A DNA stretch of 48,634 nt, filler included, from Jimgerdemannia flammicorona (Eukaryota), in assembly GCA_003990765.1 (NCBI GenBank). It is 2 parts of 2 records of this genome, joined end to end, with 100 filler letters (N's around TTAATTAATTAA, not from the genome) between each part and the next. Parts side by side here need not be neighbours in the genome. Positions count along the whole stretch, not along the records: positions 1 to 24,273 come from RBNJ01000996.1; 1 more part is not named here. One strand, written 5' to 3'. Positions 1 to 43,923 of this stretch are shown in pieces. Each line of letters begins with the position of its first letter. Positions within the stretch are counted from its first letter, which is position 1. Position numbers and translations under genes: made by a program. Below the pieces are notes generated by a model, which made no database searches, was not told where the DNA came from, and saw nothing but the letters and a program-made list of their open reading frames with translations.

Positions 1-3000
1 GCTGGTAGAGAGCACTGGGGGGACAGGAGGGTATATACGCATTGGGCTGGAGGTCTGGGGACAAGGATTGACTGGATTCTGACAGCCGACTGTTGGGGCC
101 GCGATGTGTGGAAGATGCTAGAGGTCGAATGGTGTCCGTGGTCAGATCACTGGGGCCTCTTGGGACAGGGGTGTTTTGGGGGAGGTAGGGATGGGCCTGG
201 ACATTGGCGCCTAAATTCCTCATTGTTGGATGATGAGGCCTGGTGGGAGGAGTGGGCAAATGACATTCAGCTAAAGGTGGCGAATTGGCGACAGGAAGGG
301 GCCGCGATTGAGGTTCGGTGGATGAGGATGAAAGAGATGGCCAGGATGTATTGGAGCGAGGCTGGCAGAGTAGCTGGGAAACAGCGAAGGCAGAAAGTGC
401 GTTGGGCTTCTAGTAGACTGGCTAGGCTTCTGGAGGAGTGGGCGAGACTGATGGCAGTGGAGGGAGAAGAGGATTGGCGATTAAAGAGGGTGAGGATGGA
501 GGTGGGGGAACTGCAACAGGTACTGCGGGAAGAGGAAGAGTCAAGGGTACAAGGCCTAGTGGCATGGCTTCGTTGGCAGGGGCTGGAGGAAGGGGAGAGG
601 CCTTCCAAGTTTCTCACGAGGATACTTCGAGCGAGAAAGGCACAGCAGCGGTGGGAAGGGGTACTTGGCTCAGATAATGTACTAGTACATGGTGTACAGG
701 ACATCCTTAGAACACTGAAAGCGCAATGGAGTGGATTGTGGAGTGAGGAGGAGGGTGGGGCAGATGCTACAGCCATTGACCGAACATTAGAAGACTGGCA
801 CCCACCGCAAGCTGAGGGACTGGGTGAACTGGTGATGCCTGTAGAGGAGGACGAGATCCACCAGGTTCTTGCCGCGACAGCCTCGGGTACGGCGCCCGGA
901 GAGGATGGCCTCCCTTGGGACTTCTGGAAGCGAATGGTTGGAGTCCCGGGTATATTGGGGGAGTTGACAGCACTGTGTGACTCTATATTGCAGTCAGGGA
1001 GATGGGTGGGGGAGCAAGACCTTGGGCTGGTAATGCTGCTTTATAAGAATAAGGGAAGGTGAGAGGATTGGAAGAACTGGCAGCCGATAATGTTGCTAGA
1101 TATGGACAGGAAGTTGGTGACTAAGGTGGTGGTCACAAGGCTACAGAAGGTGGCCCAGCAGATTGTGGGTATGGAGCAGAGGGGCTTCATAGGGGGTCGG
1201 CTTATTAGAGATGGCACGGCCTGGGTATATGGAGTTATTGAAGGTGCTCGAGCCTGTGGACTGGATGGGCGTCTAGTCTTCTTGGATCAGGAGAAGGCTT
1301 ATGACCGGGTGCAGTGAGTCTAGCTGGCGAAAGTATTGGATAGAATTGGAGTTCCGGGCCCATTTCAGTCGGCGATGGTCAGCCTACTGGAAAGGAGTAG
1401 GGCGGCGCTCGTGTGCAATGGGCATCGAGGGGTGGCTTTCCCTCTGGGTAGGGGTGTGCCTCAGGGGGACCCGCTGTCTCCCATTTTGTATGCTCTTTCC
1501 TTGGAACCTCTGATGGACAGAATTCGGCGGAAGATCGTGGGGCTCTCCATCTATGGCATTGGCTGGAAGGTTGGAGCCTTTGCGGATGACATGGTGGTTG
1601 GTTTGGGCGTGAATGCAGATGTCGAGGAGCTCCGGAAGACAGTGGAGTGGTATGAGGAGAACTCTGGGGCAAAGCTGAATTGGCACAAGTGTGAAACAAT
1701 GGTGCTGGGCAATGGCTTGGTGGGCGGGGAAGTTATTGGAACGATTGTCCCCACCGGTGAGGCCGTGCGGTACTTGGGCATCTATTTGTCGGTCTATGGG
1801 TCTGTTTTGCCCAGGCTGTGGTGGGAGCAGAGGATTGGAATTTGGGAGGAGGACCTGAGGGGTTGGGGGGGTCGACACTTCTCTCTGGCAGGAAGGATCT
1901 CGATTTTGAATGTATACTGGATGCCAAAGCTGTGGTATTTGGCCTATCATCTGGACTTCCCAGTCTGGGTAGTGAAGCGATTGGTGAAGGTGGCCAAGGG
2001 ATGGATCTGGGCTGGCAGAAGGAGTCAGATTGGTTGGGAGACTTTGTCCTTACTGGTGGCGAGAGGCGGTCTTGGGCTGGTGGACTTCCCCAAACACCTT
2101 CACTGTTTGAGAGTTTGGTGGCTGAAGAGGGTGGCAGAGTTGCATGGAGGGGGCTGGGTCCCTCTGCTGCAGAAGATATGGGAGAGGCGGACATCGCCTA
2201 GAGGCTTGACTGGTGATCTTCTTTTGTTGGTTGGGCTTCGGAACACTGCGTAACTGAGATACAAAGGCTTCTGGTGGGGGATAGCCAAGGGGGCACACTG
2301 CATTGGTATTTGCTGGCGAGGGGATGAGGGGGAGAGGGCTTGGGACCTGGCGATGTGGAGATGGGATAGCATTCTGCTGAGAGGCATGCCTTTACTGGAG
2401 TTCAATATTAGTGATGGCATCGAATGCCAAAGGGGTCCGGGCCAGGATCTGTGGCCTAGTGGTTGGCAAGGTGTTGGAATTGGTGAGGAGTGGGACTGGC
2501 AGGGGGTTTGGACCTGGAGTGCCGCAGTGAAAATTTGGATGCCGCCGAAGTACTGGGTTGTCTGGTGGCGTGTTCTGAGGAGGAATGTGATGCTTAACTT
2601 CCGCTCAGGACACCTTGTGGTAGGGGGCTGCTTTGACTGCGAGGAGTGCCATGATGTCGGGCAGGAAGGGGGATTGGTACAGATGCCGGAACATTGGCTT
2701 GGGGAGTGTAAGGTGTTGGGAGACTTTTGGCAGGCCATTGGGGAACACTTGGGGGTAAGGCATAGGGGTGATGCTGTATGGGGGAGGTGGGAGGACCTGA
2801 AGGATCGATTGATAGGAGGGGTTGGGGGAAGAGTGGATTACTCTAGGCTGGGCGTTGGCTATTTGGGTTGGGCTGGCTGGCCACTGGTTATTTGTATTTG
2901 AGGAGGAGAAACATCTGAGCTTGGGGAGCTGGTTAGCAAGGTGGCAGTTTCTTATGGAGGATACCTTGACGGGCTGGTGGCTTGGTTGGGGGCTGCAGGG

Positions 3001-3127
3001 GGGTCGGAGGCACCGCTTGGTGGTGAAAATCTGTAGTCAGAGTGGTGGGAGAGTTGGAGTTGTCGGTGAGAGGGTGGTCTTTATACGTGACAAGGTGGGG
3101 TGGGGCCACCCGATGGGGATCGGATAG
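1..3127 (+). pseudogene. LINE ORF2 (endonuclease-reverse transcriptase), broken by stops and a frameshift
   Basis: ORFs 106-1062, 1090-1317, 1336-2253 and 2353-2901 are in one frame, with a frameshift into 2822-3127; collinear with the ORF2 at 40185-43830. Confidence 0.93.
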
Positions 3128-3186
3128 TGGGTGGGGATACTGTAAATTTATTCATAGACTGGTAATAAAGACGGAGTCCAAGGGAC

Positions 3187-3220
<34 letters not shown>
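1..3220 (+). mobile_element. L1/Tx1-like non-LTR retrotransposon (LINE A), 3' part, 5' end outside window
   Basis: APE endonuclease C-terminus (RIDWILT...SDHW), RT motifs (PGEDGLP, PIMLLDMDRK, GVPQGDPLSP, AFADD), C-terminal CxxC...H...C, AATAAA at 3164-3169, A31 tail at 3190-3220. Confidence 0.95.
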
Positions 3221-3222
<2 letters not shown>

Positions 3223-4914
3223 AGCCTTCTTTACTTTTCTCAATAAGAGTTTTGTCAGCTCTACAAATTTGAGTAACCTAGGACAACCAGCAGTCATCTT
3301 TTTAGTCTTAGTTCCTTAGGAAGCCTGAGCCTCTGTAGCCAAGTGGCTCAACTCTACAGACTATTACCATACTAAGACCAAGACTATCTTATATTACTAT
3401 TTTCAGAATTGCAAGACTCACTATATTCTTAAAGAAGAAGCCAGAGAAACTCTCTATCAATAATCTGACTCTGAACCAGAGATAGGTTCAGTATCAATTC
3501 TATCTAAAACTAAAGCTGATACTGAATCTGAACTAGTTTTTGAATTAAGCTTATCTGAAATCTGATATATAACCAATACCATCTACTTCAATACTGAGAA
3601 AACTCAATTATATAGAGACCAAAGTGAAGAAGAGGAGGAGTATCTCAGTGAATTCAATCCTGGATATACTACTGAAGAAGATATACTTCTCTCAGAACAA
3701 AACATATCTACAGGACAACAAATAGTTATCTATCAAGCTCTTATACCAGACCCACAATAGTTACTTTAGTAACTTATATAGACTCAAAGAACACTACTAT
3801 ATTCTACACCAATACTACAAGTCATATCAGTAACACTACTACCAGTAGTCTAACTACTTTTAGCAAACAATATAGCAAATCAACAGATTCTAGACCTTAT
3901 AGCTCAGATAGCCATAATGGTAGCAATTATTACTGCCTTAGCTGAACAAATCCAATCAATAAAAAATCTAAGTCTACCTACCTTCAATGGTACTGCACAA
4001 GAAGTCCAAAGCTTTATTAGTATAGTTGATATCAATTTCAAAGCCAACTGATGGACCAATGAGCAAGTTACTAACTACCTACTGATAAACAATTAAGACC
4101 ACACTCTGGAATAACTCTTTACTACTATTATAGCCTATGTCTGTCAAGTTGTTATATTCTTCTGAGGACCTGCTGAAGAATGGTAATGAACCCTTCCTGA
4201 AAAATCTCTCATATGAGACATCTGACCTACAGTTATTGTCTAAAATACAGCAAATAATACCCCTGAGTATAGAGACCACTCTGTGGCCCCTGAGCTCAAA
4301 TAGCTTATAATTGCTCAATATCACAGTAAAACTCTGATTGCCAAATCTCAAGCTAAACTCTACAATCTCAAATTTGATATATATAGTAAAGAGGAATTTG
4401 AAACCTTCTATACAAAACGTAAGTCACTTCTAAATACCATTGGTCTAGAATATATTACTAATAATGAAGCACAAAATAGTATAAGAGCAGACTATTTATT
4501 CTAAGAAAGATCTGAGAACAAGGATGCCCAGTTAGTTGTGATCACTAATAATAGTATCTGGTAAGAATCAAGACTATGGTTAAGTGAATCCTAATAGCTA
4601 GACCAATTCCGCCTCAAAGACAATTTAACAACAGGAAAAAGACTTAAACTAATAAAGAAGAACCCATGAAGCATCCTGAGCTCTCTCTACATCCACATTA
4701 TGGACACTCCAAAATCCTGAACTTATCCAGCTAAGTACCTTCAAGAAATTCATAGAAGGAGAAAGAAATGAACTCTGAAGAAGTAGAGTATGTATTTATT
4801 ACTGAAAGACAGAATATATAGCCAGTATCTACTCTAACCAAAAACCCCAAACAGCAATATGAGCAACCATTATCACTCTGCATTATCTCAATAATCTGAT
4901 CACCAAAATACTAG

Positions 4915-5320: not shown

Positions 5321-8300
5321 ACAAGGCTCTAGCCCAATCTACTATAAGTAAGGAAGAATAATTCTATAAAAAAAATGAAGATGAATTTATACCAAGTGGC
5401 TGATGCCCCCATGGCATTGAAATATACTCTTTCTGAATAATCAACAATTGCTTCTTTTGTATCAATGAACTGGCCCAAAGGAGAATTAACAGAAGGAAAG
5501 CTTCTATAACTGAAATTACCACCATTAGATTAGACAAACTACTTATACTTCAAGCTTTTATCAACTAAGCACCTGTCAAGATTATGATAGACAGTAGTAC
5601 CTCAGGCAACTTTATCAATAAAGAAACAGCCAACAGACTCAAGGTCCTGACCTCTCCAGTACAATAGACTCAAGTAGTTGCTATAGCTAATAGAACCTCT
5701 CATATCATTAGTAAGAAAGTCTACAATCTATCCTTCCAAATTGGCAACTACTGAGTACATATTACTCTCTAGATTATACTACTTTCTGATAATGAAATAA
5801 TTCTTGGGACCCTATGGTTAAAATAAGAGAACCCTATAATTAATTGGGTAAACCATTTTCTGACCATTAAGAAAAGATGCTACAACTTCAAACTGTAAGG
5901 CAAAAAAGACTCACTCAGTTCTAGTAATCCAGGCTTAAAGATTACTAATATCAATAAACTATAACTTAAGAAATTGACCAAGAAATGCCCTCTCTTTGCT
6001 ATCTTCATCTGACCATCCAAAGGAGAATCTGAGAACCTCAAAGAAGACTTTTCCAAAGTTGACAGCCATGTTAGACCATTACTCTAGAAATTCTGAGACA
6101 TATTCCCAAAAAGAACTCTTAAAAGGCCAACCACCTAAATAAGTAGTGAACCATGCCATCAAGACCATTTCAGATACCAAGCCTACCTTTAAGTCAATCT
6201 ACTATATATCTCTGAGAGAAATTAATACACTCAAGAAAGAGATCAATGAACTCCTAGAATAAGGATTCATTATATCTAATATATTACTTTATAGTATACT
6301 AGTTCTCTTTGTTGTCAAGAAAGAAGAAGACTTATAAATATGCATTAATTACTATAACCTCAATGAATAAACTATCAAGAATTATTACCACTATCCCAAA
6401 TTGATAAAATATTCAATAGGCTTACTAATCCACAATTTATGAGCTCTTTTGATTTATGAAATAGCTATTAGCAAATTGTTATGAAAGAAGAAGACATCTA
6501 TAAAACTATCTTCCAAACTCACTATAGATATTTCAAGTTCTTGATTATGTCTTTTGGCTTAACTAATATTCCTATAATCTTTCAGATACTGATAAATACT
6601 ATTCTACACTTGCATCTGAACAAATTTATTATTGTCTATATTGACAACATCCTAGTCTTCAGTAAAACCCTGAAGAAACATTTAAAATATCTTGAACTAG
6701 TACTATTGAAGCTCTGAGAAAACTGACTTTTTGTAAAACTCAGTAAATGTGAATTCCTCCTGAAGAAAATTCAATTCCTTAGATATATTATCACTCCTAA
6801 TAGAATTAAAATAGACTTCAGTAAAATCTTCACAATCAAGGATTGGCCCAGACTCAAAAAGCTGAAAGACCTCTAGTTATTTCTGGAACTAGCAAATTAT
6901 CACTAATAATTTGTTATAAACTTTACCAAAATCACTACTACCCTTACTCAAATAACTAAGCACAGTAAAAAAGAAGAACAGCCTTGAACTACAAAATAAG
7001 AAAAAGACTTCAATAATCTTATAAATTAGAGATCTGAACAAGATATAGTCTTTTAAGCCCTGAAAGATACCTTGATAATTACTCTAGTACTTCAAGCAGT
7101 AAACTCTATTTTACTATATAAAGTTACTATAGATGCCTCTGATCTAGCTCTTAGAGCAGTGCTTATATAAGAAGAACACTCTATGGCCTATTATTCTTGT
7201 AAGTTCAATAATGTCAAAATCAACTATATGATCTATGAGAAAAAAATATTAATTATCATAGACACTCTGATTAAATAGTGACTATATCTAGAAGAAGTAT
7301 ACTTTACTATATTGATAGACTAAAAATTATTAGTCAATATCAAGATCCAGACTACCTTTTCCTAAAAGTAAGCCAGATGGATAAAAGTCCTTACCAATTT
7401 TAACTATAAAATCTAGTACTGCTCTGGTAAGGAGAATATTATTGCTGATACAATTTCTAGATCACTAATCAAAGAGGTTATCCAAACCTTCATCTTAGTT
7501 ACCAACTCTATTATAGAATAAATTATCACAGTATGTACTGATGATAAAGAAGCTCAAATACTCTAAGAAATTCTGAACAGTAATAATATTGACAAATACT
7601 CCTGATATCATTAATACCAACTGAAGGACAATACTATTTATTATAAGAATAGATTATATATTCCTAATAATCAAGATCTCTGAAGGACTATCCTATTTGA
7701 ATATTATAATATCCCTATAGCCAGATATTTAAGATTTGATAAATACTATGAAGTTATTTCCCAAAACTTCTATTAGCCCTATATGGCAGATCAGTTAAAG
7801 ACCTACATCACCTTCTATAATATCTGCTAATGTAACAAGTCTTCAACACTAGTAAAACCTGACCTACTCTACTCTATTTCAGTACTATCTGCCAATTAAG
7901 AATAAATCTTTATGAACTTCATTATATAACTACTCTAAACTAAGAATAAAAAAGATATAATTGTTATCTTCATAAACTATCTTAGCAAATAAGCTCACTT
8001 CATACTTACTACTATAACTGCAACAGCACCTGAAATTTCTATACTCTTATTTAATAACATCTTTTACTATTATAGTCTTCTGAAGATCATTATTAGTAAC
8101 CAAGATGCAAAGTTTACCAGTCACTTTTGGAAAGTTCTACATGTATACCTTGGAACAAAACTTATACTATCTACAGTCTTCTATTTTGAAACTGATGGTC
8201 AAACTGAAAGAATGAACCAAACTCTGAAACAAATGCTAAGAAACTATATTTTCTATAGATAAGATAATTGGTATGAATACCTTACTACAGTCAAGTTTGT

Positions 8301-8800
8301 CTATAATAACAGCAAACAAGCTTTTCTTAAAATGACTCCATTCTTTGCCAATATAGAACAAAACCCAAATACCTCTCTGACACTTATCAGAACTACTGAT
8401 AAATTCTCTACTATTGAAGCTGTGGAAGAATTTCTGCTCTAAATATACAATTTAAGTTAGATTGTAATCAAGAATTTATCTCAAGCTCAAGAACAATAGT
8501 TATAGTATATCAACTAACACTACTAAGAAGAAACTTTTGATATTAGAGAAAAAGTCCTACTAGATATTAGAGGATACTAAGTTGATAACCTCAAGCACAG
8601 ACTCTCTATAAAACTAAATAGCAAATTTATTAGATCATTTGAAGTCATTATATAAGTCTCTACAATTTTCTACAAACTGGTACTACTAGATACTATTAAG
8701 ATTTATTCACTAATATCTTAAGCAGTACAATAAAAATGATGACAAGCTATTCCTAAACTAAATTACAAAACTGCCTGTACTTATTATTATTAATGACCAA

Positions 8801-8950
8801 GAAGAATATAAAGTTGAATAAATTCTTAACAAATATAACCACAAGAACCATCCAGAATATCTTATTAAATAGAAAAATTATCTAATCTATAATATAATAT
8901 AGAAATCTAAAATCAATCTCTAGAATACTACTGACTTAGTTTAAGAATAT
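8801..8950 (+). pseudogene. Integrase C-terminal chromodomain remnant
   Basis: EEYKVE*ILNK...PEYLIK*KNY....*KSK.NL, a mutated form of YEVEkIL...YLVKWKGY....WEP..NL. Confidence 0.8.
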
Positions 8951-9211
8951 GATTCTCAGGCCTTTCTTCATTACTTTACCAGTCACAATGGTTTGGTAGG
9001 CAACCTTCTGAGTCTACTTTCCACAATTATTACCCCCTCTACCTCAGGTTGGTTTGCTGTACCTGTTACAGAGCAGTGAGAGTGAGGCAATGGTGATGAG
9101 TTGCCTCTTTATCAGTATCAGATTGGTGTCTTCTCTACTTTTTCACAGTTTCTAGTAGTGCTCTACAAACCTGACCCAATTAACCTGAAACCCAATCCAT
9201 AAAACAGCCAA

Positions 9212-9400
9212 CCCGGAATTAGATGTCACCTGTCTTTAACCCAACCCAGAATTATATGTCACCCATCTTTAACCCGACTCAGAATTATACATCACCCGTC
9301 TTTAACCCGACCCAGAATTGTACATCACCCATCTTTAACCCAACCTGGAAAGATACATTACCCATCTTTAACCTGACCTGGAAATGTATGTCACCTGACC
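9212..9400. repeat. About 5.5 copies of a 33-bp tandem repeat, in an AACCCGAC-rich tract (9160-9477); probable DNA-transposon subterminal repeats
   Basis: Unit CCCAGAATTATATGTCACCCATCTTTAACCCGA; lies just past the 3' end of the hAT transposase. Confidence 0.8.
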
Positions 9401-10044: not shown

Positions 10045-11333
10045 TGTAATGTGCCAGCTCAATAGAGGCAAATTATAAGGTTGGGGGTTGATGTAGTTTG
10101 GCTTAAGCCCTCAGTTACTTTGTCAAAAAGCAACAAAATGTTCTAAGATTCCTGAGGTCCTTGGTGTTTAGTGGTATAATAGTCAAGCTGGATATCTGCG
10201 AGTGGTTTCCTTATTGGGACAGTTCTCTGGGTGTAGTGGCAATTTGTGTCTTTCCTTCTTGGGTCAACTGGAAATAGCAGAATTTGTGTGTAGCACGAGC
10301 GGTTTCCTTCTTAAGTGACAATCTCTGATTTCTGCATGACGATCTGGCAATTTAGTGGTTCTCCTTATGCGGTTTCTGCATGACGATCTCTGTGTAGTGC
10401 AACGATTTCCAAAAGTATGTAATTTCTGGCAGATAGCTCGATTTGGCTCACTGGGAATGTATGGTGTGAATTCTTCCATAATAGGCTCACTGGGAACAAC
10501 GAATAACTCGGATGTCGTGGATTCTTTCTGAATCGGCGGCTTCAACTGGGAATATGGCGGATAACTCAAAAGGCGGTAGATGACGCGGATTCTCCTGAAT
10601 CGGTGGGCTTCTTGAAAATGGTGGCTTAACTGGGAATTAACTCGGATGGTGCGGATTCTTCCTGAATCGGGCTCTTCTGGGAATAATAACTCGGGTTCTT
10701 GGCAAGTTACATTGAGACTGGCTTCGTTTGTGTGGAGTTGCATTGATAGATTGGCTTTACTGTGAAGTTGCATCAGAGACTGGCTTGTGGCAAGGCTCTC
10801 TGGGAATGTGGAAACTGGGGTTCTTCAGGCTTATCTGGCAAGCATACCAATAGCATGGCTTATTCCTTTAAGTGGCGGGTTCTTCAAAAGGTGGCGAAGT
10901 TCTTCCTTGAACTTGGCGGCAAATCTTTAAGCTTTATATCAGAAAGTGGACCGGAGTGGGAATAAGGGGACCAATTGCTCAATCTTTAGAGGCTTCTTTG
11001 GTTTGCACTTCAATTTAGACTGAGGTTTATTCACTCTTGTCTCTGGGGTAATTTATACAAGTTGGTTGCTATCTGGTTACTATGTGGCTAACTATAGATC
11101 TGCTACTTATGGCAGGTGTACAGAGTCTGTACGGTGTACAGGACCTATACAGTGTACAGAGTCTGTACGGTGTACAGAGTCTGTACAGGTAAACAGACCC
11201 TTTCTGGTATGTCTGGCTATTTATACAGTTTCCACAGCAATGGTTGCTGGTTACTATACTGTGTGTTCACATCATCTTCGCTAATTGTTTACGTCATCTG
11301 GTTAATTTGGGTGGTACATTTCGGTTTGTCACA
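10045..11333 (-). repeat. 3' LTR (1289 bp)
   Basis: TGTAAT...TCACA; direct repeat of 18915-20141 plus ~44-bp and 18-bp extra segments. Confidence 0.95.
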
Positions 11334-11372
11334 TCAGCCCCCACTGAAGGGTAGTCTGTCCCAGACTATTCT

Positions 11373-11888
11373 TTAGTCACCATTCCAATAAGCATAGGCT
11401 GCTTCTGTATCTATACCTGTTCCATCATCTTCATTGTCTGTATCAGGGTCACTCCATTCTATGGGCTCTTCTTCTTCTTCAGGGAATAGGATTTCGACAG
11501 AGTTGATGATGCTCAAATAGGTAACAGGGTTCATTCCTTGAATGTTATTCAGGGAGAATTGTGCCTGTGTCAGGGCTGTAACATTTTGTTTGTAGATGGT
11601 GTATAGTCTGTCTGCAGCAGTAGTGTCTCTTCTGATCAGACCTGTGGTGTTTCTGATGTAGGTCTGTTTGGGGGCTGGGAGGTTCTGCAATTGTTCACCG
11701 ATTGCATAATAGGCCTGCAGTTGGTGGACTTGTAGTAGGCATCTGGCCAGGGTGAGATTTTCCTGATGAGCTTGGATCCTTTGAAGGGGGCTTCCATTGG
11801 CTTGGCCAAATTGGGGTAGAGGGATGGGTAGGGCTTGGAAGGAGCTGAGGACCAATGTCAGGAGGCGCTGATTAATCCTTTGGCTCAT
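11373..11888 (-). CDS. Extra 3' ORF (171 aa from MSQRINQR), unknown function, acidic C-terminus
   Basis: Open frame between integrase and 3' LTR; its ATG overlaps the natural integrase stop (ATGA, 11888-11885). Confidence 0.65.
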   Translation of the reverse strand: MSQRINQRLLTLVLSSFQALPIPLPQFGQANGSPLQRIQAHQENLTLARCLLQVHQLQAYYAIGEQLQNLPAPKQTYIRNTTGLIRRDTTAADRLYTIYKQNVTALTQAQFSLNNIQGMNPVTYLSIINSVEILFPEEEEEPIEWSDPDTDNEDDGTGIDTEAAYAYWNGD

Positions 11889-12952
11889 GGTGTAGAGGGG
11901 AGATATAGTTTGAGGCGATTGATATATACTGGTGTTCTCAGGGTTCATCCATCCATACTTCTTAAATAGATGCTGGTTCCTCTGATATTGTGTACAAGAT
12001 AAGGTCCTTCCCATTTGGGTTCCAGTTTGGTGGCAAAATTCATTTCAATCATGCTTCTCCAAACTAGTACTTGATATCCAATCTTGATCTCCTGATCCTT
12101 CTGTTTTTGGTTATAGTACTTCTTTTGTCTTTCTTGGGCTTTGATAATTTGTCCTCGGGCTTGATTACATAACTGTTCTGTCTTTTTGAGGAGATCTCCA
12201 AGATTCTCATGGTCAGCAGTTCTGGTTCTCTTGGCAAACATCATTTCAAATGGCTTTTGTTTGGTGGAAGCAGCAGGGGTATTCCGAATTTCCCATAGGA
12301 TTTCAGGTAAGCAGAGGTCCCAATTGGTAGGATTGACTCGGGCAAGTTCTTTCTTGATGGTCTGATTCATCCTTTCTGTCATGCCATTGGTCTGAGGGTG
12401 GTATGATGTGGTCTGTTTGAGGTGGATTTTGTGAATTCGGGAATAACTTGTGATTATGTTATTGATGAATTCTGTGCCTCGGTCAGAGATAACTTCTTCT
12501 GGGGGTCCATATCTGAGTGTGAGTCTATGGAGGAGGCCTACAATGGTTAAGGCATCTGCAATTTCCATTGGAAAAGCCTCAGGCCACTTGGTCAGATGTT
12601 CTACAAATACAAGGATGTATTTGCTTCTTCTTGGTGTAACTAGTAGAGGTCCAATTACATCTACTCCCCATCTCTGAAAGATGTGAGTGGGTGGGGGAAT
12701 TGGCTGCAAGGGGGCTTGATAGTTCTCCTTTCCTTGATACTTCTGGCAAGTGTCACATTTCTGGATGATGTCTCGGACTTGAGTTCTGAGGTGAGGCCAG
12801 TGTTGATACAGTTTTCGAATCTTATCTTCTGTACTTATCTGTCCTTGATGGGCTTTCTGATGTTCTTTTCGAATGAGATCTTCTTGTGTCTTGATGGTCT
12901 GAGGAGCTTCTTTTAGGGTGTAGTTCCTTGGGACACCCTTCTTCTGGTTCAT
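11885..12952 (-). pseudogene. Integrase as a separate ORF (HHCC, DDE, GPY/F), one premature TGA at 11947-11945
   Basis: H..H...C..C, WGVDVIGP, ISDRGTEF, PQTNGMTERMN, KWEGPY; frame continues past the TGA as TLRTPVYINRLKLYLPSTP*. Confidence 0.92.
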
Positions 12953-14379
12953 TGGGGCTGGCGGGAAAGTACATCAACATTGTTGTAAGCTTTCCCTGCT
13001 TTGTGGATGATGGTGATTTTGTAATCCTGAAGGATAAGGATCCAGCAGGCTAGGATTCCGGTGGGTTCCTTATTGTTGAATAACCATTTGAGGGCTGCAT
13101 GGTCTGTGATCAGAGTGAACCTTTTTCCAATGAGGTAATGTTTGAACAGAGTGACCGCCCATATGACTGCAAGGCATTCCAGTTTGGTGCTACCATAGTT
13201 GGTCTGCTGCTGATTGGTAGCTCTGCTTGCATAAGCTATCATATGGTGCTGTTGATCAGGTCCTTCTTGGGCTAGAACTGCTCCAAGGCCATCTTTAGAA
13301 GCATCTGTATACAAAATGAATGGCTTCTGTAGATTGGGGCGCACAAGGATTGGTACTGTAGTCATACAGTTCTTGAGTTCTTTGAAGGCTTTTTCCTGTG
13401 ACTCTGTCCATTTGAATGGCACTCCTTTCTTGAGAAGGATTCGGATTGGGGCAGCGATTTGGGCAAAGTCCTTGATGAACCTTCTGTAGTAGGATACTAG
13501 CATCAGAAATGATAGTGTTTCCTTTGGAGTCTTGGGTACTGGCCAATTGTTGATCTTCTCGGTTTTCTTTGGGTCTGCATGGGTTCCTTCTTTTGAAACT
13601 ATGAATCCAAGAAATTCGAGTTTCTGTTTCTCAAAGTAGTATTTCTTTGCATTTAGTCTCAAGTGGTTTTTGCAGGTGAGCTTGAAGAATTCCTCTAGGT
13701 GGTGCAGGTGTTCTTCGAAATTTGCTGAATAGATGTTGGAATCATCCATGTATACAATCAGGCAGTGGTGGATCAAAGGGGCATAGACTGAATTCATCAT
13801 CCTCTGGAAGGTGGGGGGTGCATTGCAAAGTCCAAAGGGCATTTGGAGGTACTCAAACAGTTTTCCTAGAGCAAGGAAGGCTGTCTTTTGAATGTCTTTG
13901 GGGTCCATGGGGATCTCTTGAAATCCTGCGAAAAGGTCCATACTGCTGAAGTATCTGGCATCTTGTAGCTGATCCAAAAGGTCATCGATTCTGGGCAAAG
14001 GATAGGTATCCTTTTCGGTGACTGAATTGAGTTTTCTGTAATCCACACAGAGTCTCCATCCTCCTTTCTTTGGTACAATAAGTATAGGGCTAGCCCAGGG
14101 GCTGGTAGAGGGTTGGATAACTCCATTGTCTAAGAGTTCTTGAATGTGCTCCTTTTCAAATGTTTTCAAGTGATGGGGTATTCTATAGGGTTTCTGCCGA
14201 ATGGGTGTTGCATTTCCTGTATTTATGCTGTAGTGGTATGATGGATTGTATGGCAGGTTGCCATAATCAGTGGTGAAGATATCTTGATATTTGTTGAGTA
14301 ATTCTACTAGTTGTTGCTGTTGTTGAGGTGTCAATTCTTCTCCAATGTTGGTGGAAGGCTTCACTGTCTCCTGGGTCAC
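12949..14379 (-). CDS. pol: Reverse transcriptase-RNase H of the gypsy element
   Basis: RLCVDYRKLN, MPFGLCNAP, VYMDD, LYTDASKDGLGAVL, TDHAAL, DVLSR; 476-aa open frame. Confidence 0.95.
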   Translation of the reverse strand: MTQETVKPSTNIGEELTPQQQQQLVELLNKYQDIFTTDYGNLPYNPSYHYSINTGNATPIRQKPYRIPHHLKTFEKEHIQELLDNGVIQPSTSPWASPILIVPKKGGWRLCVDYRKLNSVTEKDTYPLPRIDDLLDQLQDARYFSSMDLFAGFQEIPMDPKDIQKTAFLALGKLFEYLQMPFGLCNAPPTFQRMMNSVYAPLIHHCLIVYMDDSNIYSANFEEHLHHLEEFFKLTCKNHLRLNAKKYYFEKQKLEFLGFIVSKEGTHADPKKTEKINNWPVPKTPKETLSFLMLVSYYRRFIKDFAQIAAPIRILLKKGVPFKWTESQEKAFKELKNCMTTVPILVRPNLQKPFILYTDASKDGLGAVLAQEGPDQQHHMIAYASRATNQQQTNYGSTKLECLAVIWAVTLFKHYLIGKRFTLITDHAALKWLFNNKEPTGILACWILILQDYKITIIHKAGKAYNNVDVLSRQPQ

Positions 14380-14770
14380 AGAAGGGTCTTTCCTTTCTTC
14401 TGGGACCTTTTGCCGTTTCCCGATAGGTTTAGTTCATAAACTTCTCTATGAGTTCAGTTGAGAAAAGGCACCAGATGTCCTATGATGGTTCCTTTCAGCA
14501 AGATGAGGGTCTCCTAACTTTGGTTGGTTCCTCGGGAGTGTACTGGATTCATCTTATCAGGGAATGTGTGTCCCTCTATGTCCAGGTGTGGGATATCTTC
14601 CTTGGGTTCAAAGAAGAGATTTCTGGGGTCGGGTGGTGCAAAGATTTCGAAGGTAGTTTGTTCTCTGGGCTCCAGGATGAGATTCTTGTGCAGTCTGACT
14701 GGTTGCTGGTACACTTGCTGGGGAACATTCCTCTTGAGATGGTTGACTTGAAGGAGATGTACTCCTTTCT

Positions 14771-15170
14771 ATCTGAACTTCCAAATCCCTTGGCTTGTCT
14801 TGTTCCTTCAGTTAGTCCAGAGACTTCCTGTAACTATGGGGTCTTGACCTTCATGAAGACTGCTTGGGTAATCTTCTGTCCTCTAATGATTTGGTGCCAT
14901 TCTGTAGTTATGTAGGATAACCTTGATTTCGCCTGTGTATCCAGGGTCAATGGTTCCTCCTTCTACAGTTATCCCTTGTCTGGAAAGTCCAGACCTTGAG
15001 GTCAGTTGAATATAAGCTCCTAGGGGTGGCTGCATGGCTAATCCAGTTCTAACCATGAAGGTTTTTCCAGGTTTGATGGATTCATCCTCCAGGCTGTGAA
15101 GATCATATCCTACATCCTCTAGGTGGGCTTTGGTCGGGGGTTTGGCCTTGGGGTGCAGCAGGACATACTG
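14771..15170 (-). pseudogene. dUTPase between protease and RT (frameshifted near C-terminus)
   Basis: DVGYDL, TSRSGLS, GGTIDPGYTGEIKV, then ITQAVF and TRQAKGFGSS in other frames. Confidence 0.93.
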
Positions 15171-16529
15171 GGCAATATCCTTGCTGAGTTCAGGCTTTCC
15201 TAGGGCTGAAGCTCCACTAGTAGAAAGCCTCCAAGCTCTAAGGTTGAGGTGTGGCCATCTGGCTCCAGTAGAGGGGTCTCGAAGGTAGTTGATTCCCCTT
15301 ATTCCTGTAGGGTCAAGGGCTTCCATGAAGTTGGTGGCATCTTCTGCCCATTCTTGGCGGGTTGCATGTCTGATAAGAGCTAGGATGTCTTCTCCCAAAT
15401 CATAGATCTTGAGGATTCTTCTTCCTGGCTTCTTGGTCTGGCTTTTTTTTATCTGGCTTTTTCAAATCTGGCTTCAGTTGTCTCCTTTCTTCAAAGTGTG
15501 CACTGCAACATCATGACTGAGGTGAATCTTCTGATGTCTGCAGTCTCGGCAGTCAGGGTGTCTCCCATGGTTGCAATATCCCATTGCCCGAAAATGATGT
15601 TCCCGGCTATGTATCTCTTGTTGTCTTGAGAATTGGTACCCATCTTGATCATAGGTTGGGGGAAGGGTAGACAAGGGGTATATTTCTGTTCGGGTGAAGA
15701 AGCCTTGCCCCCTAAATCAACTTTGTAACCTTGTAGTGACCTCTTGGAAGGTGGTGGACTGTGCAAGAGTAGTTGGGGGTTCTGGTCTCTGGGGTCTCTG
15801 TCTTTCTTGTTGGTCCAACAGATGACACTGATAGCAGTAGTCTCAGGGAGAGTGGAAGACCATTTGGTGTAGACATCTTCCTAGCTAAAAAGCTTTCTCT
15901 TGGTGGGTTTCTTTCTTGGGAATAATGGTGATGGTACTGGGTCCTTCCTCTGTATTCCAGGGGTCATTGTCTTTGAGTGGTGTCCAGTGAGGGTCATCCC
16001 AGGAGATGAGTTCAGGGACTTCTTCTTCATCAGGCACTTCTTGTTCAGGAACTTCTTGGTCAGAAGTTTCTTCTTCCTCAGATGATTCTTGACCCCAAAT
16101 CGCTTGTACTTCTGCAGCTTCAGTTGCAGGTGTTTCTGGAACATATCTGCATTTCTTCTTCTTCCTTCTGCACTCTGGGCAGGCTGTGCCAGGCGATTTC
16201 CTTATTCCCATGATCTTGGAGGAGTGCTCAGGACACTTGTGTCTCTTGAGGCACATAGGGCAACCTTTGATTTCTCCTGTAATGGCTCCAATGGTGATAG
16301 GGATGGTATTCTTGACCCACACATTATCTTCTGGTCTGTCATCCACCAGGTTGATTCGGGGATTGAGTCTAGGGTCATTTCCATCTTCGGATTCTTCTTC
16401 CTCTTCTGTAGTAGACTCCTCACTACTGGCATACTCTTCCTGAATGGTGACCTTCTTCTTCTTCTTTGATTGCTCATAACTGGTCACCTTAACTCTATAC
16501 TTCTTGCCTCGGTAGTCAAACTTGAGTAC

Positions 16530-16850
16530 TTGTTGGCCAATATCAACGACTGCATTCATTTCCTTCATCCAATTGGTGCCAAGAATCATGTCATAGGTGA
16601 CAGCTTCGGTGACAACAGGTTTTGGGATAGAGAACTGAATGTGTCCAAGAGAGATGGTGATATTTCGTACTTCTCTAAGGGGTTGAGTTCGGGCCCCATC
16701 TGCTACTATGATGCTGAGGTTGGATGGTCCATCAATGGGCCATTGGAGGGTGTCTAAGAATCATTTGGCAATGACACAGACAGCTGCTCCTGTGTCTATG
16801 AGGATTTTTGCTTTTTGTCCTCCAATATCTCCATATAAGTAGGTGCTGAC
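16530..16850 (-). pseudogene. Retropepsin aspartic protease
   Basis: ILIDTGAAVCVI and MILGTNWM motifs. Confidence 0.9.
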
Positions 16851-17289
16851 ATGTCTTTCAGCTGCTTGGACAGGAATGGAAGCTGGTTCTTGCTGTGGGA
16901 TTGGAACTCGGCCTGTGCTAGACCTGGTGGTTCTCAGCAGTTTGTTTCGGACTCCAGCTGGTGTCAGTTGCAAGAACTGTAGCAGAGGGACTTCCATTTT
17001 GGCTTCTTGAATTTTCTGCCAGGCTTCATTGTAAATATCTCTAGGCATGGTCTTTGGAGAATACTTTTTCTTGGGTTTTGGGGGTATAGGTTTCTGTTCT
17101 TCTTGTTCCATTTCTTCATCTTCTGGTGGCAGCTCATTTGTTTCAGGCACAAATGGTGAGGGAGTTCGGGGAGGTGTTTCTACCTGTTCCTCCTCATGCT
17201 CTTCGTCTTCTTCCTGAATCATTCTTCTGCTGACATTTCTGGATGGCCTTCCCACAGGTCTCTTTCTTTTCTCTGCTGGGTAGACTGTT

Positions 17290-18890
17290 TTTCAGGTGGT
17301 AACCTTGGTAGGGTACAGGTCTAGGTCACTGTAATCTTCGCTATTGCTTGCTTCCTCGAAATCTTCGACAGGATGGGCTTCAGTCTTCTTGTACTGAGTG
17401 TCATTCCTTCAGTTGGGTGGTTCTGAGTTCCTTCGGTCACTTCTTTTGTTGTCACATTCAGTGGCATAGTGTCCAAATTGTCCACAATAGAAGTATTGGA
17501 CTTGGGTTCTGTCTCGGACAGGATATCTTCTTTCTTCTTGCTGGTAACTCCTGTTATCTCTTGGTGGATAACCTTGGCTCCTCTGTGATGGGTATCCTCT
17601 GTTGTCTTGGTGGCTCTGATTGTCACGTGTAGTGAGTTTTTCAATCTGTCCAACCAATCGGTCCAACTTAGAGCTGAGGTCTTAGATTTCGCTTCTATCC
17701 TTCTTTCCTTCTTTGGCTGGCCTTCTTTCTTCAGATCTTTCTTGTCCTTGAAGGAGTCCTTGTAGGGCTTTGACCAGGATGTCTTCCTTCTCTTCTTTTC
17801 TGTCATGATCACTCCAGGTAGTTCCTTATCTGACATCAGAGTATTCTTGGGCTGCATCTACTTATTCCTCGGACCTTCTGATGCCTAGGGTGTGGACATA
17901 GTGAGCAATATTTGGGGGAATTCCATTCATGAAGGTCATTGGACCTATGATGTCTTGGTTGGTGGCATTGAACCTGGCAGAATGCATTCTCTTCTGGATT
18001 CTTGTGAAGAAGGCTCTGGGTGATTCTCCGAGATTCATCTTCATCCCCATGATGGATTCTTGAGCCTTGTGGTGGGTTTCATTTCCTACATACTTTTTGA
18101 TGAGTCAGTGGACCATGGCCTCATATTCTAGCTCATCAGAAAATACTGCTTGTATCTGTCTTGCCAGTTCTGTATCTGGGTTGTTTGCTGTTCAGTGGAA
18201 AATTCCTCGGACTGGTTCCCTGAGCTGAGCTTTATAGATGGCGATTTTTCTTTCATCTGAGAGATTTCTCAAGGCTGCAATTCCTTCAATTCCATCAAGG
18301 AATTCTCTGGGGTCTTCCTCTGGGTATCCTGCAAAGGTTGGCAATGAAGTGGCCATTTCTTCGTCACTTTCTTCTGATTCTGGTTTGGGTTCGGATTCAG
18401 ATTCTGATTCACTTTCTGAGCTGTCACTAGAGATGGGGGTGCTTGGGTATCTTGAGGATGGTGTTCTGGCCCTTGGATGGAGTAGAATAGGCCTAGGTAT
18501 TCTTGTAGGAACTACTTCCAGTTCTGCAAGGGGTTGTGGTAGGGGTTCTATTGGTGAAATTGGTGGGACTGGTGTGGGGTGTCTGGCTGTAAAGTATTGG
18601 GTTCATGTGATAAGATCTTCTAATTTTTGTGCAAGTTCTCCAAAATCTCTAGCAGGGCTGTCTGTATTGTCCAGTTGATCTGGTTGGGGATTTTGGGCTG
18701 TACTGCCTTCTGGTTCTGGTTGGGATCCTTCTGATGCTGGGTAATTGGCAAGTCTTGATGTAATTACTTCTCTTCCTGTCCAAATGCTGGTGATAACTGG
18801 TTCTTCTGTAGTAGCAGAGATTGGTGTTGGATCAAATGTATCCAGTTTGACTGTGGGTTCTTGTGAGCTGAAAAGTCATGTCAATTTTGA
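17290..18890 (-). pseudogene. gag: gag with CCHC knuckle remnant
   Basis: LPTFAGYPEEDPREFL, FMNGIPP, QYFYCGQFGHYATEC (first C mutated to Y); collinear with 46970-48349. Confidence 0.85.
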
Positions 18891-18894
18891 AATC

Positions 18895-18912
18895 TTCCCA
18901 GTTGAGCCCCCA
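18895..18912 (-). promoter_or_regulatory. Primer binding site, tRNA-Pro-like
   Basis: TGGGGGCTCAACTGGGAA, 2 nt inside the 5' LTR end; resembles the tRNA-Pro PBS TGGGGGCTCGTCCGGGAT. Confidence 0.85.
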
Positions 18913-18914
18913 AA

Positions 18915-20141
18915 TGTAACGTGCCGGCTCAATGGAGGCAAATTACAAGGTTGGGGGTTGATGTAGTTTGGCTTGAGCCCCCAGTTACTTTGTCAAAAAG
19001 CAACAAAATGTTCTAAGATTCCTGAGGTCCTTGGTGTTTAGTGGTATAATAGTCAAGCTGGATATCTGCGAGTGGTTTCCTTATTGGGACGGTTCTCTGG
19101 GTGTAGCAGCGATTTGTGTCTTTCCTTCTTGGGTCAACTGGGAATTGCAGAATTTGTATGTAGCACGAGCGGTTTCCTTCTTGAGTGATGATCTCTGATT
19201 TCTGCGTGACGATCTCTGTGTAGTATGATGATTTCCAAAAGTATGCGATTTCTAGTAGATAGCTCGATTTGGCTCACTGGGAATGTATGGCGTGGATTCT
19301 TCTGTAATGGGCGCACTGGGAACAATGAATAACTCGGATGTCGCAGATTCTTCCTGAATCAGCGGCTTCAACTGGGAATACAGCAGATAACTCAAAAGAT
19401 GGCAGATGACGCAGATTCTCCTGAATCAGTGGGCTTCTTGAAAACGGTGGCTTAACTGGGAATTAACTCGGATGGTGCAGATTCTTCCTGAATCGGACTC
19501 TTCTGGGAATAATAACTCGGGTTCTTGGCAAGTTACGTCAAGACTGGCTTCGTTTGCGTGGAGTTGTGTCGATAGACTGGCTCTACTGCGAAGTTGCATC
19601 AGGGACTGGCTTGTGACAAGGCTCTCTGGGAATGCAGAAACTGGGGTTCTTCAGGCTTATCTGGCAAGTGTACCAATAGCGTGGCTTATTCCTTTAAGCA
19701 GTGGGTTCTTCAAAAGGCAGCAAAGTTCTTTCTTGAACTTGGTGGCAAATCTTCAAGCTTTGTATCGGAAAGTGGACCGGAGTGGGAATAAGGTGACCAA
19801 TTACTCAATCTTTAGAGGCTTCTTTGGTTTGCACTTCAATTCAGACTGAGGTTTATTCACTCTTGTCTCTGGGGTAATTTATACAAGTTGGTTGCTATCT
19901 GATTACTATGTGGCTAACTATAGATCTGCTACTTATGGCAGGTGTACAGAGTCTGTATGGTATACAGGACCTGTACAGTGTACAGAGTCTGTACAGGTAA
20001 ACAGACCCTTTCTGGTATATCTGGCTATTTATACAGTTTCTGCAGCAATGGTTGCTGGTTACTATGCTGTGTGTTCATGTCATCTTGGCTAATTGTTCGC
20101 GTCATCTGGTTAATTTGGGTGGTATATTTCAGTTTGTCACA
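18915..20141 (-). repeat. 5' LTR (1227 bp)
   Basis: TGTAAC...TCACA; direct repeat of 10045-11333. Confidence 0.95.
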
Positions 20142-21969
20142 ATATGTAGATCTAAGGCTAAAGCTATGCTGTATAATGGTATCATCTTGCAGTAATACTT
20201 TAGAAGTTTCATACATACATTCTCAGCAGCAGTAAGCATTATCTATAAAAAATAAAAATATACACATATTACTTCCCAATTACTTACTAAATTAGTTCCT
20301 AAATTCACAAATAAAATTACTTTCAAAATCATATATATACCTGATTAAAATGTTCACCAGTTTGATATATATCGATGACATCTTCAAGATGATCACATAG
20401 CCAATTAAATAGTGGGATAACAGCCACTATTATAGGATACTTTGAAGCTGACATCACAGTTGTCACTTTGGCAAAAGGCTCAAGAAATCAGCAAATCAAT
20501 TCAAATTGTTGCCATGCATCTTCAGATATATCACTCATTTGCTTATCCATGGCACACAATATATCCAAACCCTATTTGGATGTAATATCAATTTATTTAG
20601 TACCAAAATACTTCCAAATTGTATTCCAAAATCTATACAAATAGATTCAAAATCTTACCTTATGAATCTCCAGAGTATGCGCTAACATTTCATATATAGA
20701 ACTCCATCTCATTATAACATCTAAGAGAGGCTTCAAAATGGGAATTCTGGAGAATTTACAGACCTTTGCTAGTTGTGCTTGTCGTTGCACTGAATTTTTG
20801 ATCTTCTTTATCAACTCCCATAGCTTTCCAATGGGCTCGCTAAGAGAACCAAGAGCATCATGAACAATGAGATTCAACACATACCTAAAACAGCATATAT
20901 GAGCAAGCAGATGATAGAGATTCTCAAACAGAGTATTGTTGTTACTGGCATTGTCACACACAACAGCAATGATTTAATTGTCACTAGGCAATAAATCATC
21001 TATTATCAGCTCCAGACTTTTCGCAAGATTGGCACCCATGTGTGTTATTTCACTAATATTTACAAAGTCTAAGATAATGTCATGTATCTTCCAATCACTG
21101 TCAATCCAATGGGCTATTATTCCAAGAAAGGCCTTGATGTTAATATCTGATATCCAACAATCAAGTATAAGTGACACCTTTGACTTGAGCCCTGCTAGCC
21201 TTGCTTTTACTTGAGTCCTCAATAGTTTGAATTCCTTTTGAATAACTCATGAAATCGTATCAGCCGATGGAAGGGCCAGATCAGGGTGTAATATATGAAG
21301 GAGATACTTGAAGCCAGTGTTTTTGATAGTGGAGAATGGCTGATATCTAGTGACAATGAAGTTGGCAATTAATCAACGGAAATTTTCATCACTTAAAGTC
21401 TTGCTAGTGTGTTCCTATTTGTAATAATAAAATTTGATCAATTATTTTTCTAATAACCTCCTAAGTACTTCCTGAATTCCATTCTATCTATACTTACAAT
21501 ATCATCTTTCTTAGACCAGCGAGAATTCTCAGCACGCTGGAGAGGTAAGAGCATGGCATTGTGATGCTTCCAGAGATGTCATTTAAGATTGTTGATATTG
21601 CCATCCTTCGATATATAGCTCCAAGTTATGCAATAGTTGCAACTGATGAGCTTACTTTGTAAATTCTATTTGAATAGAGAGATATGAGACTATATTAGAA
21701 CCTCAACCACTTACAACCAACTACCCACTCTTATGACTGATGAGACCAATCACCCCTATGAATTCAACCATTAGCACAATGTATAAAACTACCTTTGTGG
21801 TATGATTCCACACCTAGCTATCACTAGATTTTGTTTTTATTTTTATTCTTATGCTCGTTGGTGATAATGAACTGGTGGAGATATCTGATATATCCTCTGA
21901 TATATCCTCTGATATATCATCCAACAGTTCCGAGATTTCTCCTAAATGTACTTCTTGATCTTTAGACAT
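20142..21969 (-). pseudogene. hAT transposase, 5' part (BED finger, catalytic core), with introns
   Basis: VWNH..CNYC...NLK*HLWKHH BED finger; SLILDCW, CDNASNN, DVIMRWSSIYEML, KLLKYY...ALALDL; GT-AG introns, e.g. 20243-20340. Confidence 0.92.
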
Positions 21970-24273: not shown

Positions 24274-24373
24274 NNNNNNNNNNNNNNNNNNNNNNNNNNN
24301 NNNNNNNNNNNNNNNNNTTAATTAATTAANNNNNNNNNNNNNNNNNNNNNNNNNNNNNNNNNNNNNNNNNNNN
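24274..24373. other. Artificial 100-bp contig spacer
   Basis: N44 + TTAATTAATTAA (stops in all six frames) + N44. Confidence 0.95.
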
Positions 24374-40153: not shown

Positions 40154-40184
40154 GGGTTGCATCTGAAACTATATAATTAATCTT

Positions 40185-43100: not shown

Positions 43101-43830
43101 TGAGTTTGACATTGGTAATGGGATCGAATACCAGCGGGGACCAGGCCAGGATCTGTGGCCTAGCAGTTGGCAGGGTGTAGGAATTGGCGAGGAGTGGGAC
43201 TGGTATAGCATATGGGCCTGGAGTGCCAAAGTGAGGAGGTGGTTGCCACCGAAGTACTGGGTGGTCTGGTGGCATGTGCTGAGGCGAAATGTCATACTCA
43301 ACTTCTGCTCTGGTCACCTTATCGAGGGAGGCTGCTTTGACTGTGAAGAGTGTTATAATGTTGGGCTGGAAGAGGGATATATACAGATGTCTGAACATTG
43401 GCTAGGGGAGTGTGAGGTACTTAGTACCTTTTGGCAGAACATTGGGGATCATCTGGGAGTAGTGTGCAGGAGTGCTGATGTATGGGGGCATTGGGAGGAT
43501 TTAAGGGGTAGACTGGAGGAGGGGGTGGGGAAGGAATGGCTGATGTTAGGGTGGGCTTTAGCCATTTGGGTGGAGCTGGCCAGTCACTGGCTATTTGTTT
43601 TTGAGGATGGGAGGAAACTTGGCTCCGAGATCAGACTGATGAGGTGGCGTAGCCTTATGGAAGACACCTTGACAGGCTGGTGGCTGGGTTGGGGGTTGAA
43701 GGGGGGTCAAAGGTGTCATTTGGTAAAACAAATCTGTAGACAGAGTGGGGGGAGGGTTGGGGTAGTGGGTGCAAAAGTGGTCTTTGTTTATATATGTAAG
43801 AGGAGTGGTACTCCTATGGGGATTGGGTAG
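40185..43830 (+). pseudogene. LINE C ORF2 (APE endonuclease-RT-Cys motif)
   Basis: FSLNVNGL, LLQD, GGDFN, RIDWIL, SDHW, GVSQGDPLSP, AFADD, CFDCEEC; start codon reads ATA. Confidence 0.93.
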
Positions 43831-43889
43831 TGCAAGGATAAACTGTAAAATTATTAATAGACATAATAAATGGCAGAGTCTAAGTGACA

Positions 43890-43923
<34 letters not shown>

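Follow-up and report, generated by a model that had tools for sequence, protein, structure and literature searches.

Separate integrase and downstream reading frames in a Ty3/gypsy-lineage retrotransposon family of Jimgerdemannia flammicorona, with overlapping stop and start codons that suggest coupled translation

Here we describe a retrotransposon bounded by long terminal repeats (LTRs) in a 48,634-nt stretch of DNA from Jimgerdemannia flammicorona (NCBI GenBank assembly GCA_003990765.1), the window of this analysis, in which parts of two records are joined by 100 filler letters, positions 1 to 24,273 coming from RBNJ01000996.1. The element, on the minus strand, spans 10.1 kb between 20141 and 10045, and each of its LTRs measures about 1.2-1.3 kb. 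We call it the window copy and its family family A; families B and C belong to the same genome, L217 is a family B locus, and relatives labelled L122, L123, L124, L127 and so on are metagenomic loci. Its units follow one another as Gag-protease (PR)-dUTPase, a putative -1 frameshift, reverse transcriptase (RT)-RNase H (RH), an ATGA in which a stop and a start codon overlap (junction 1), integrase (IN), a second such ATGA (junction 2), and a third open reading frame (ORF), ORF3 (Table 1). The window copy matches Pfam families for RT, RNase H, the integrase zinc finger and core, and dUTPase (E 1.8e-15); its protease match is weak, that of the relative L123 is clear, and the domain order PR-RT-RH-IN is present. 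The nearest solved structure to RT-RH is the Ty3 RT/RH (E 1.4e-89; next entry 1.4e-51), a placement made by solved-structure matches. Judged by its RT, domain order and LTRs, the element is of the Ty3/gypsy (Metaviridae) lineage, and the window copy is a decayed member of a high-copy, probably fungal, retrotransposon family with Pol split into cistrons.

The RT-RH frame (14433-12949) terminates in DVLSRQPQ, and its TGA at 12951-12949 overlaps the ATG at 12952 from which integrase opens; direct reading of the sequence bears out the preliminary description of this element, which had reported the same ATGA at 12952-12949. The family was surveyed in 32 long copies and about 90 shorter loci, partly overlapping. 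The RH stop position is a stop in all 31 long copies that cover it, the 36-nt context of junction 1 does not vary in length among 30 loci, the window copy included (26 ATGA, 4 ATAA), and of 67 distinct loci, 55 close the RH frame with ATGA and 4 with ATAA, 7 meet an earlier stop and 1 has a private indel. No indel common to at least four long copies lies near 12952. The fixed context length and the RH stop in 31 of 31 rule out a copy-specific indel as the source of the overlap, and none of the long copies has RH and IN fused in a single frame, so that the split is confirmed as a family trait and not damage to one copy. Integrase does not lie within Pol here: the RH stop is constant, IN is in another frame, and the junction has no slippery site. 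The start of the window integrase lies about 40 residues nearer the zinc finger than in most relatives. A second partial copy of the family, an LTR and part of gag that are 77-96% alike, lies in opposite orientation at 46008-48286 and beyond, past the N gap near 24274 and on another contig than the window element.

Integrase itself ends in NRLKLYLPSTP with a stop at 11887-11885 that overlaps the ATG (11888) of the 171-aa ORF3, which ends at 11373; this second ATGA (11888-11885) is present in the window copy as first described. The same description had translation reading through a premature TGA in the integrase tail, and this we reject: only 19 of 31 long copies carry a stop at this TGA (11947-11945), L122, with its 354-aa integrase ORF, lacks it, and it is a polymorphic decay lesion. 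A test of whether both ATGA junctions are conserved had been proposed as well; junction 1 is kept family-wide, and junction 2 is not fixed. In 75 distinct loci junction 2 reads ATGA in 62 (with two integrase tail lengths), ATAA in 3 and a subfamily form in 9, with 1 misaligned, most of the ATGA loci having been retrieved by likeness to the window copy. That subfamily form, ATG-N11-TGA, places the integrase stop 14 nt after the ORF3 ATG, and it is common, since all nine examples come from 24 loci retrieved by junction 1 and thus not selected for junction-2 likeness. The start of ORF3 is constant while the stop of integrase shifts slightly.

Table 1. Features of the window copy, positions along the window
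Feature	Position	Strand	Remarks
5' LTR	18915..20141	-	1227 nt, TG...CA ends
Primer-binding-site-like TGGGGGCTC	18904..18912	-	2 nt inside 5' LTR end; from sequence
ORF1: Gag, protease, linker, dUTPase, tail	14361..18356	-	
Putative -1 frameshift heptamer G GGA AAC	14415..14421	-	in ORF1 phase; followed by a predicted stem-loop
RT-RNase H frame	12949..14433	-	494 codons; no ATG near start; ends 3 codons past LSR motif
Predicted RNA hairpin	12961..12999	-	47 to 9 nt upstream of integrase AUG
Junction 1, ATGA	12949..12952	-	RH stop over integrase start
Integrase ORF	11885..12952	-	355 codons; HHCC zinc finger, core, GPY/F motif WEGPY
Junction 2, ATGA	11885..11888	-	integrase stop over ORF3 start
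ORF3	11373..11888	-	171 aa
Polypurine-tract-like AGTGGGGGCTGA	11334..11345	-	from sequence
3' LTR	10045..11333	-	about 1289 nt

Upstream of RT, the earlier reading had overlooked a -1 frameshift. The ATG of ORF1 (18356) is kept in 24 of 24 copies and its stop (14363) in 31 of 31; in the window copy the frame is broken by scattered stops and by two small deletions, near 14912 and near 14768; compared with the long copies, that copy has no other private indels. ORF1 and RT-RH overlap by about 70 nt; RT-RH is read in the -1 frame and lacks an ATG near its beginning. Each of the five elements with overlapping ORF1 and pol has an in-phase X XXY YYZ heptamer, a pattern that survives in 16 of 31 decayed family copies, and the folds downstream of the heptamer are 1.0-3.5 standard deviations below shuffles. 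It is a well supported inference that a minority of ribosomes shift by -1 at G GGA AAC to make a Gag-PR-dUTPase-RT-RH protein. The frameshift region (14433-14361) follows Gag-PR-dUTPase and not Gag alone; in L127 the frameshift comes directly after Gag, L123 and L129 have a single Gag-to-RH ORF, and family C is single-frame by appearance, in one copy. Selection was assessed by counting shared variants by codon position in each unit's own frame, which gave 89/67/167 for RT-RH, 82/64/139 for integrase and 100/49/150 for ORF3, and ORF1 also has a third-position excess in its own frame. These counts show four coding units (Gag-PR-dUTPase, RT-RH, integrase and ORF3), each selected in its own frame. 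A coding extension 5' of the Gag ATG is unsupported, with variants at 39/41/48.

For ORF3, a crude transversion omega of 0.31, against 0.78 and 1.68 in the other frames, indicates purifying selection; ORF3 is a genuine gene. Its close homologues in metagenomes are 57-79% identical, and sequence searches returned close relatives alone (8 in one, 7 in another). Leave-one-out profiles of 8 groups scored 11.9-50.4 bits, with the best of 300 shuffles at no more than 7.3, and place in the same family the ORFs after integrase in family C, L123, L124, L125, L129 and L143, together with one distant protein; the profile also matches L127, L135 and family B. Taken alone, pairwise profile matches to distant 3' ORFs are weak (probability 0.6%, 33% and 43%). 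The mean predicted local distance difference test score (pLDDT) of the structural model rose from 61 to 82 once the distant members were added, and the model has a predicted all-helical core (about residues 1-134) and an acidic tail. By profile and model, then, ORF3 is a member of a clade-wide all-helical family. It has no Pfam family at E 0.001 and no usable match in the ESM Atlas; no fold matched, Z peaking at 4.6 for the weak model and at 3.6 for the improved one, Foldseek returned nothing at E 0.001, and the helix-turn-helix domains of VirB, SopB, KorB and Mor, which recur at Z 2.8-3.5, are a lead only. Our guess would be an accessory protein that binds nucleic acid or integrase and helps in packaging or target choice. 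The family B homologue, at L217:3104-3748, sits behind a polypurine-plus-TGTGA signal and may lie inside the LTR; one long stretch examined had no second LTR.

The same arrangement extends beyond family A. In family B, whose integrase is 47% identical, every one of the 26 junctions read has ATGA, preceded by an RH tail of 22 codons; in family C (36% identical) 21 of 27 junctions read ATG-N2-TAA and the other 6 keep the ATG with earlier RH stops, and its ORF3 begins as ATG-N5-TAA in 27 of 30, the ATG lying 8 nt before the integrase stop. L123 has ATGA at junction 1, an ORF3 start that is also close to the stop (26 nt), and intact ORFs of 1564, 418 and 230 aa, and since these ORFs are unbroken the split design is not a by-product of decay. 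Among 89 metagenomic and viral loci, 37 lack a usable upstream RH, 22 are fused, 11 are broken or unclear and 19 are split. All 19 have a methionine at the start of integrase, which lies within 8 nt of the stop in five (-1, -1, +2, +5, -8), after spacers of 12-92 nt in 10 and after 139-524 nt in 4. A purine at -3 of the integrase start is present in 2 of 6 overlap-type and 12 of 14 spacer-type elements, in small numbers of related rows. In L127, which is uninterrupted with identical ends, integrase is followed by a 266-aa coiled-coil-looking protein and an ORF3 homologue (7458-8258 and 8592-9176) before the polypurine tract. L129 carries about 310 extra codons between RNase H and the stop (3496-4441), with no Pfam match.

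In a 36-row RH+IN tree the window copy, L122, families B and C, L123 and L124 form a clade with a Shimodaira-Hasegawa-like approximate likelihood ratio (SH-aLRT) of 100, and the clade has support of 98 on IN and, without family C, of 94 on RH. The trees are quick searches without bootstrap, and the 36 rows omit the 11 broken or unclear loci, rows short of RH or IN, and 7 near-duplicates. Across this clade the offsets from integrase ATG to RH stop are -1, -1, -1, -1, -5 and +5 nt, with RH tails past the LSR motif of 3 (A), 22 (B), 13 (C) and 11 (L123) codons; L127 (TAATG) and L130 (ATG-N5-TAA) make a second pair. A single origin of the split is compatible with the data (approximately unbiased test, p-AU 0.46), with five fused rows placed, by weakly supported branches, between split rows. 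The RH and IN trees both hold the window copy's clade together, and on this ground we reject a recent capture of integrase from a foreign source. Most of the best 120 of 970 integrase-like proteins are about 385-440 aa long with a methionine start at a common register, which is supporting evidence only, as the search dropped fused forms by length and gene callers favour methionine. Taken from conservation, independent initiation at the integrase methionine is close to certain.

Just upstream of that methionine, the 60 nt before the integrase AUG are predicted in families A and B to fold into a hairpin from -47 to -9, with arms GGGAA[A/G] and [T/C]TTCCC and inner stems that differ in sequence; only nested folds were considered. 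Its z scores are -2.5 in the window copy, -3.6 in L122, and -4.3, -2.9, -1.8 and -1.7 in family B, values that none of the 3-8 upstream control windows per element reaches, and 14 spacer-type elements give -0.9 to +1.2 at the same place. All 60 family A and all 26 family B junctions, which are related copies and not independent, include the stem in their minimum-energy fold, and synonymous recodings folded as well in 21 of 500 cases for the window copy, 2 of 500 for L122 and 0 of 500 for L217. In family A the arms fall within the conserved last RH codons; in family B they stand at the same offset from the AUGA within a 20-codon tail beyond the RH motif, the true RH end being unfolded. That tail matches the last 60 nt of family A at 31 of 60 positions, and none of the 451 in-frame windows compared does better: their mean is 16.4 and the runner-up has 28. 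The tail agrees with family B's own RH end at 17 of 51 nt and with family A at 25-26 of 51, so a tandem duplication of that RH end is unsupported as its source. Downstream of the overlaps, folds computed for the window copy only gave z -1.3 and +0.4 at junction 1 and -1.2 at junction 2.

Taking these observations together, we think it probable that integrase and ORF3 are made through stop-restart at the overlapping AUGs, with integrase released as a free protein. The minority of ribosomes that shifted into the RT frame would reach the end of RNase H, where some of those that stop would restart at the overlapping AUG and make integrase, aided in families A and B by the hairpin just 5' of the AUGA; the same kind of stop-restart would couple ORF3 to integrase. 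Whether made by stop-restart or from an RNA of its own, integrase is never joined to Gag and must be packaged in trans, entering the particle by binding RNA, Gag or RT. Stop-restart is favoured because start and stop remain no more than 5 nt apart despite changing tail length and geometry, and because an AUGA with upstream structure is a tested signal in fungal victoriviruses, as the relevant section of one study sets out (PMC6631646). The motifs AUGA, UAAUG and AUG-nx-UGA are the pattern of coupled termination-reinitiation in the passages of a second paper cited here, and the spacings of the clade fit them (PMC5972666). The polycistronic coupled design of the preliminary description stands to the extent that a separate IN frame is found family-wide and in families 36-47% identical and that ORF3 is selected; the second ATGA is not fixed. 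As a complete package, a one-RNA operon with a -1 frameshift, two stop-restarts, a movable hairpin, a trans-packaged integrase and ORF3 as its partner is a tentative proposal that we rather doubt in full.

Several observations weigh against stop-restart. In 14 of the 19 split metagenomic relatives a spacer of 12-524 nt separates stop and start, and in 6 of these it contains ATGs; an overlap of the victorivirus kind cannot operate there, and long spacers mean that the wider group needs another route to the integrase start, which family A may share. Reported restart and frameshift rates run from a few to 20% each in the part of the literature drawn on here (PMC6631646), and three chained events at such rates would put ORF3 at well under 1% of Gag. 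Family C, L124, L127 and L130 lack the hairpin, the L123 fold is not significant (66 of 500 recodings as good), no hairpin precedes junction 2 (z +0.4), and the structure was spotted after looking, with so few control windows per element. Pairing with 18S rRNA also finds no partner: a GGGA lies about 44 nt upstream, but the putative host helix 26 stretch AGTGACTCGTT, placed by a model position, lacks CCC. Finally, the ORF3 homologue of L127 is two ORFs, or about 1.6 kb, beyond the integrase stop, and that of family B at least 460 nt beyond it.

Long AT-rich spacers with good Kozak context, and the five separate ORFs of L127 with gaps of 330-460 nt, are what one would expect if integrase and ORF3 came instead from a subgenomic RNA, spliced or from an internal promoter, in the manner of retroviral env, with the overlaps as mere compaction. 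Such an RNA would avoid the low yield downstream of a -1 frameshift, and in the window copy a stretch of pyrimidines closes with CAG 5 nt ahead of the integrase ATG; that CAG is absent in L122, however, and across 20 elements the last AG falls anywhere from 3 to 116 nt before the ATG. No recurrent splice-like deletion was found at either start in 120 family loci, which is weak evidence, the internal deletions there being three, each a single case. A subgenomic RNA also leaves unexplained why the ATG lies within 5 nt of the stop in six lineages with varying tails, and we consider this route, the main rival, unlikely though worth keeping in view; in one variant, which could be combined with stop-restart, at most ORF3 would be coupled to integrase. 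Internal initiation or shunting, in which the hairpin or AT-rich spacers bring ribosomes to the integrase AUG whether or not they have terminated upstream, would suit a structure that keeps its distance from the AUG in two families and the unstructured A/U-rich leaders of the spacer-type relatives, yet no structure is common to the clade and such a route does not require a stop/start overlap, which makes it improbable. Least probable is recoding, in which a frameshift or readthrough would fuse RH and integrase into an ordinary Pol polyprotein, with no role for the ATG. Ahead of the RH stop, family A has 7 open codons in the integrase frame and family B has 31, and the element already appears to use a -1 frameshift; the methionine is nevertheless kept throughout, integrase lies in the -1, 0 or +1 frame relative to RH among the split relatives, L127 has 0 open codons, and a -1 slippery heptamer is absent from 7 of 7 junctions tested, on which we reject a frameshift of that kind at junction 1.

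The two LTRs of the window copy are 92.4% identical, their differences comprising 89 transitions and 4 transversions, and the flanks ATAT and GTAT (1 mismatch in 4 bp, from one copy) suggest a 4-bp target duplication with one change. We take TGGGGGCTC, provisionally, to be a match to tRNA-Pro; there is no tRNA gene in the window. First searches for family A gave 1083-1622 candidates, which are not copy numbers, and the lone named integrase relative is from Entrophospora candida. Decay of the family copies consists almost entirely of transitions, concentrated at CG sites, which yields recurrent stops and false ATGs. A stop-free frame of 186 codons lies within the 3' LTR (10264-10824, minus). 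Outside the element, a 33-nt tandem repeat of at least 5 copies occupies 9175-9395, about 650 nt beyond the 3' LTR, and a transposase-like ORF lies on the other side at 20647-20973; with these two flanks, the element may have inserted into a DNA transposon. Decayed non-LTR-type elements with RT-like ORFs, poly-A near 3190 and 43900 and strong G skew cover 1-3218 and 35400-45750. Gene exons at 24573-25661 (minus) carry a DPHK motif, and we presume from that motif that the gene resembles a pyridoxal phosphate-dependent decarboxylase. A search of a phage collection gave no match.

Textbook LTR elements bring integrase into the particle within Gag-Pol, and this clade must make and package its integrase otherwise. 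It makes testable, on short natural sequences, both the restart of eukaryotic ribosomes where a very long ORF precedes and no 18S-pairing motif is present, and the loading of integrase in trans, and it offers a natural series from fused through overlapping to spacer-separated frames, with a candidate cis-element in some members and absent in others. In genomes of this kind, stand-alone short "integrase" calls, and elements scored as dead by a stop after RNase H, may be normal genes. In the literature listings searched for this architecture we found no description of a separate integrase ORF in Ty3/gypsy, and Repbase, GyDB, closed papers or supplements may hold one.

Foamy virus Pol is made apart from Gag and packaged in trans, as a whole Pol from spliced RNA; here, unlike there, integrase alone is apart. 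Like Ty3/gypsy elements such as yeast Ty3, this element has TG...CA LTRs, the PR-RT-RH-IN order and a GPY/F motif; unlike them, it has an IN ORF of its own with its own methionine, PR and dUTPase in the Gag frame, and a conserved ORF after IN. In the portions of the literature used here, canonical Ty3/gypsy elements as a rule have one or two protein products, IN being part of Pol, Troyka has a single Gag-Pol (PMC12440569), and Kuafuorterviruses have a normal Pol (PMC11673190). The position of dUTPase between PR and RT is shared with PosPlaTy3-5 of Postia and with Phanerochaete and Tuber Tmt1 gypsy elements, which have one fused ORF or two ORFs and, in the main-text passages, no separate integrase (PMC2864245). 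Termination upstream ribosome binding sites (TURBS) of caliciviruses and influenza B virus, by contrast, have a motif 1 (UGGGA) that pairs with 18S helix 26 at 40-90 nt upstream, and no such pairing was found at the present junction. The victorivirus HvV190S, at its coat protein/RNA-dependent RNA polymerase junction, and the hypovirus CHV1 have AUGA or UAAUG after a long ORF, a fungal host and upstream structure, at least in the sections consulted (PMC6631646); overlaps of this type are present here as ATGA in families A and B and as TAATG in L127. In HvV190S an H-type pseudoknot in a 38-nt region was shown to be necessary, according to the same sections (PMC6631646), whereas here a simple hairpin is predicted in two of three families. 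Among retrotransposons, termination-reinitiation yields the second protein of SART1 (UAAUG) and the ORF2 product of LINE-1, in the latter over a spacer of 63 nt that resembles those of the spacer-type relatives; both are non-LTR elements that couple ORF1 to ORF2, and SART1 requires a downstream structure, so far as the cited passages go (PMC5972666). If stop-restart holds, the element would work like the coupling of victoriviruses and SART1 while being a member of neither.
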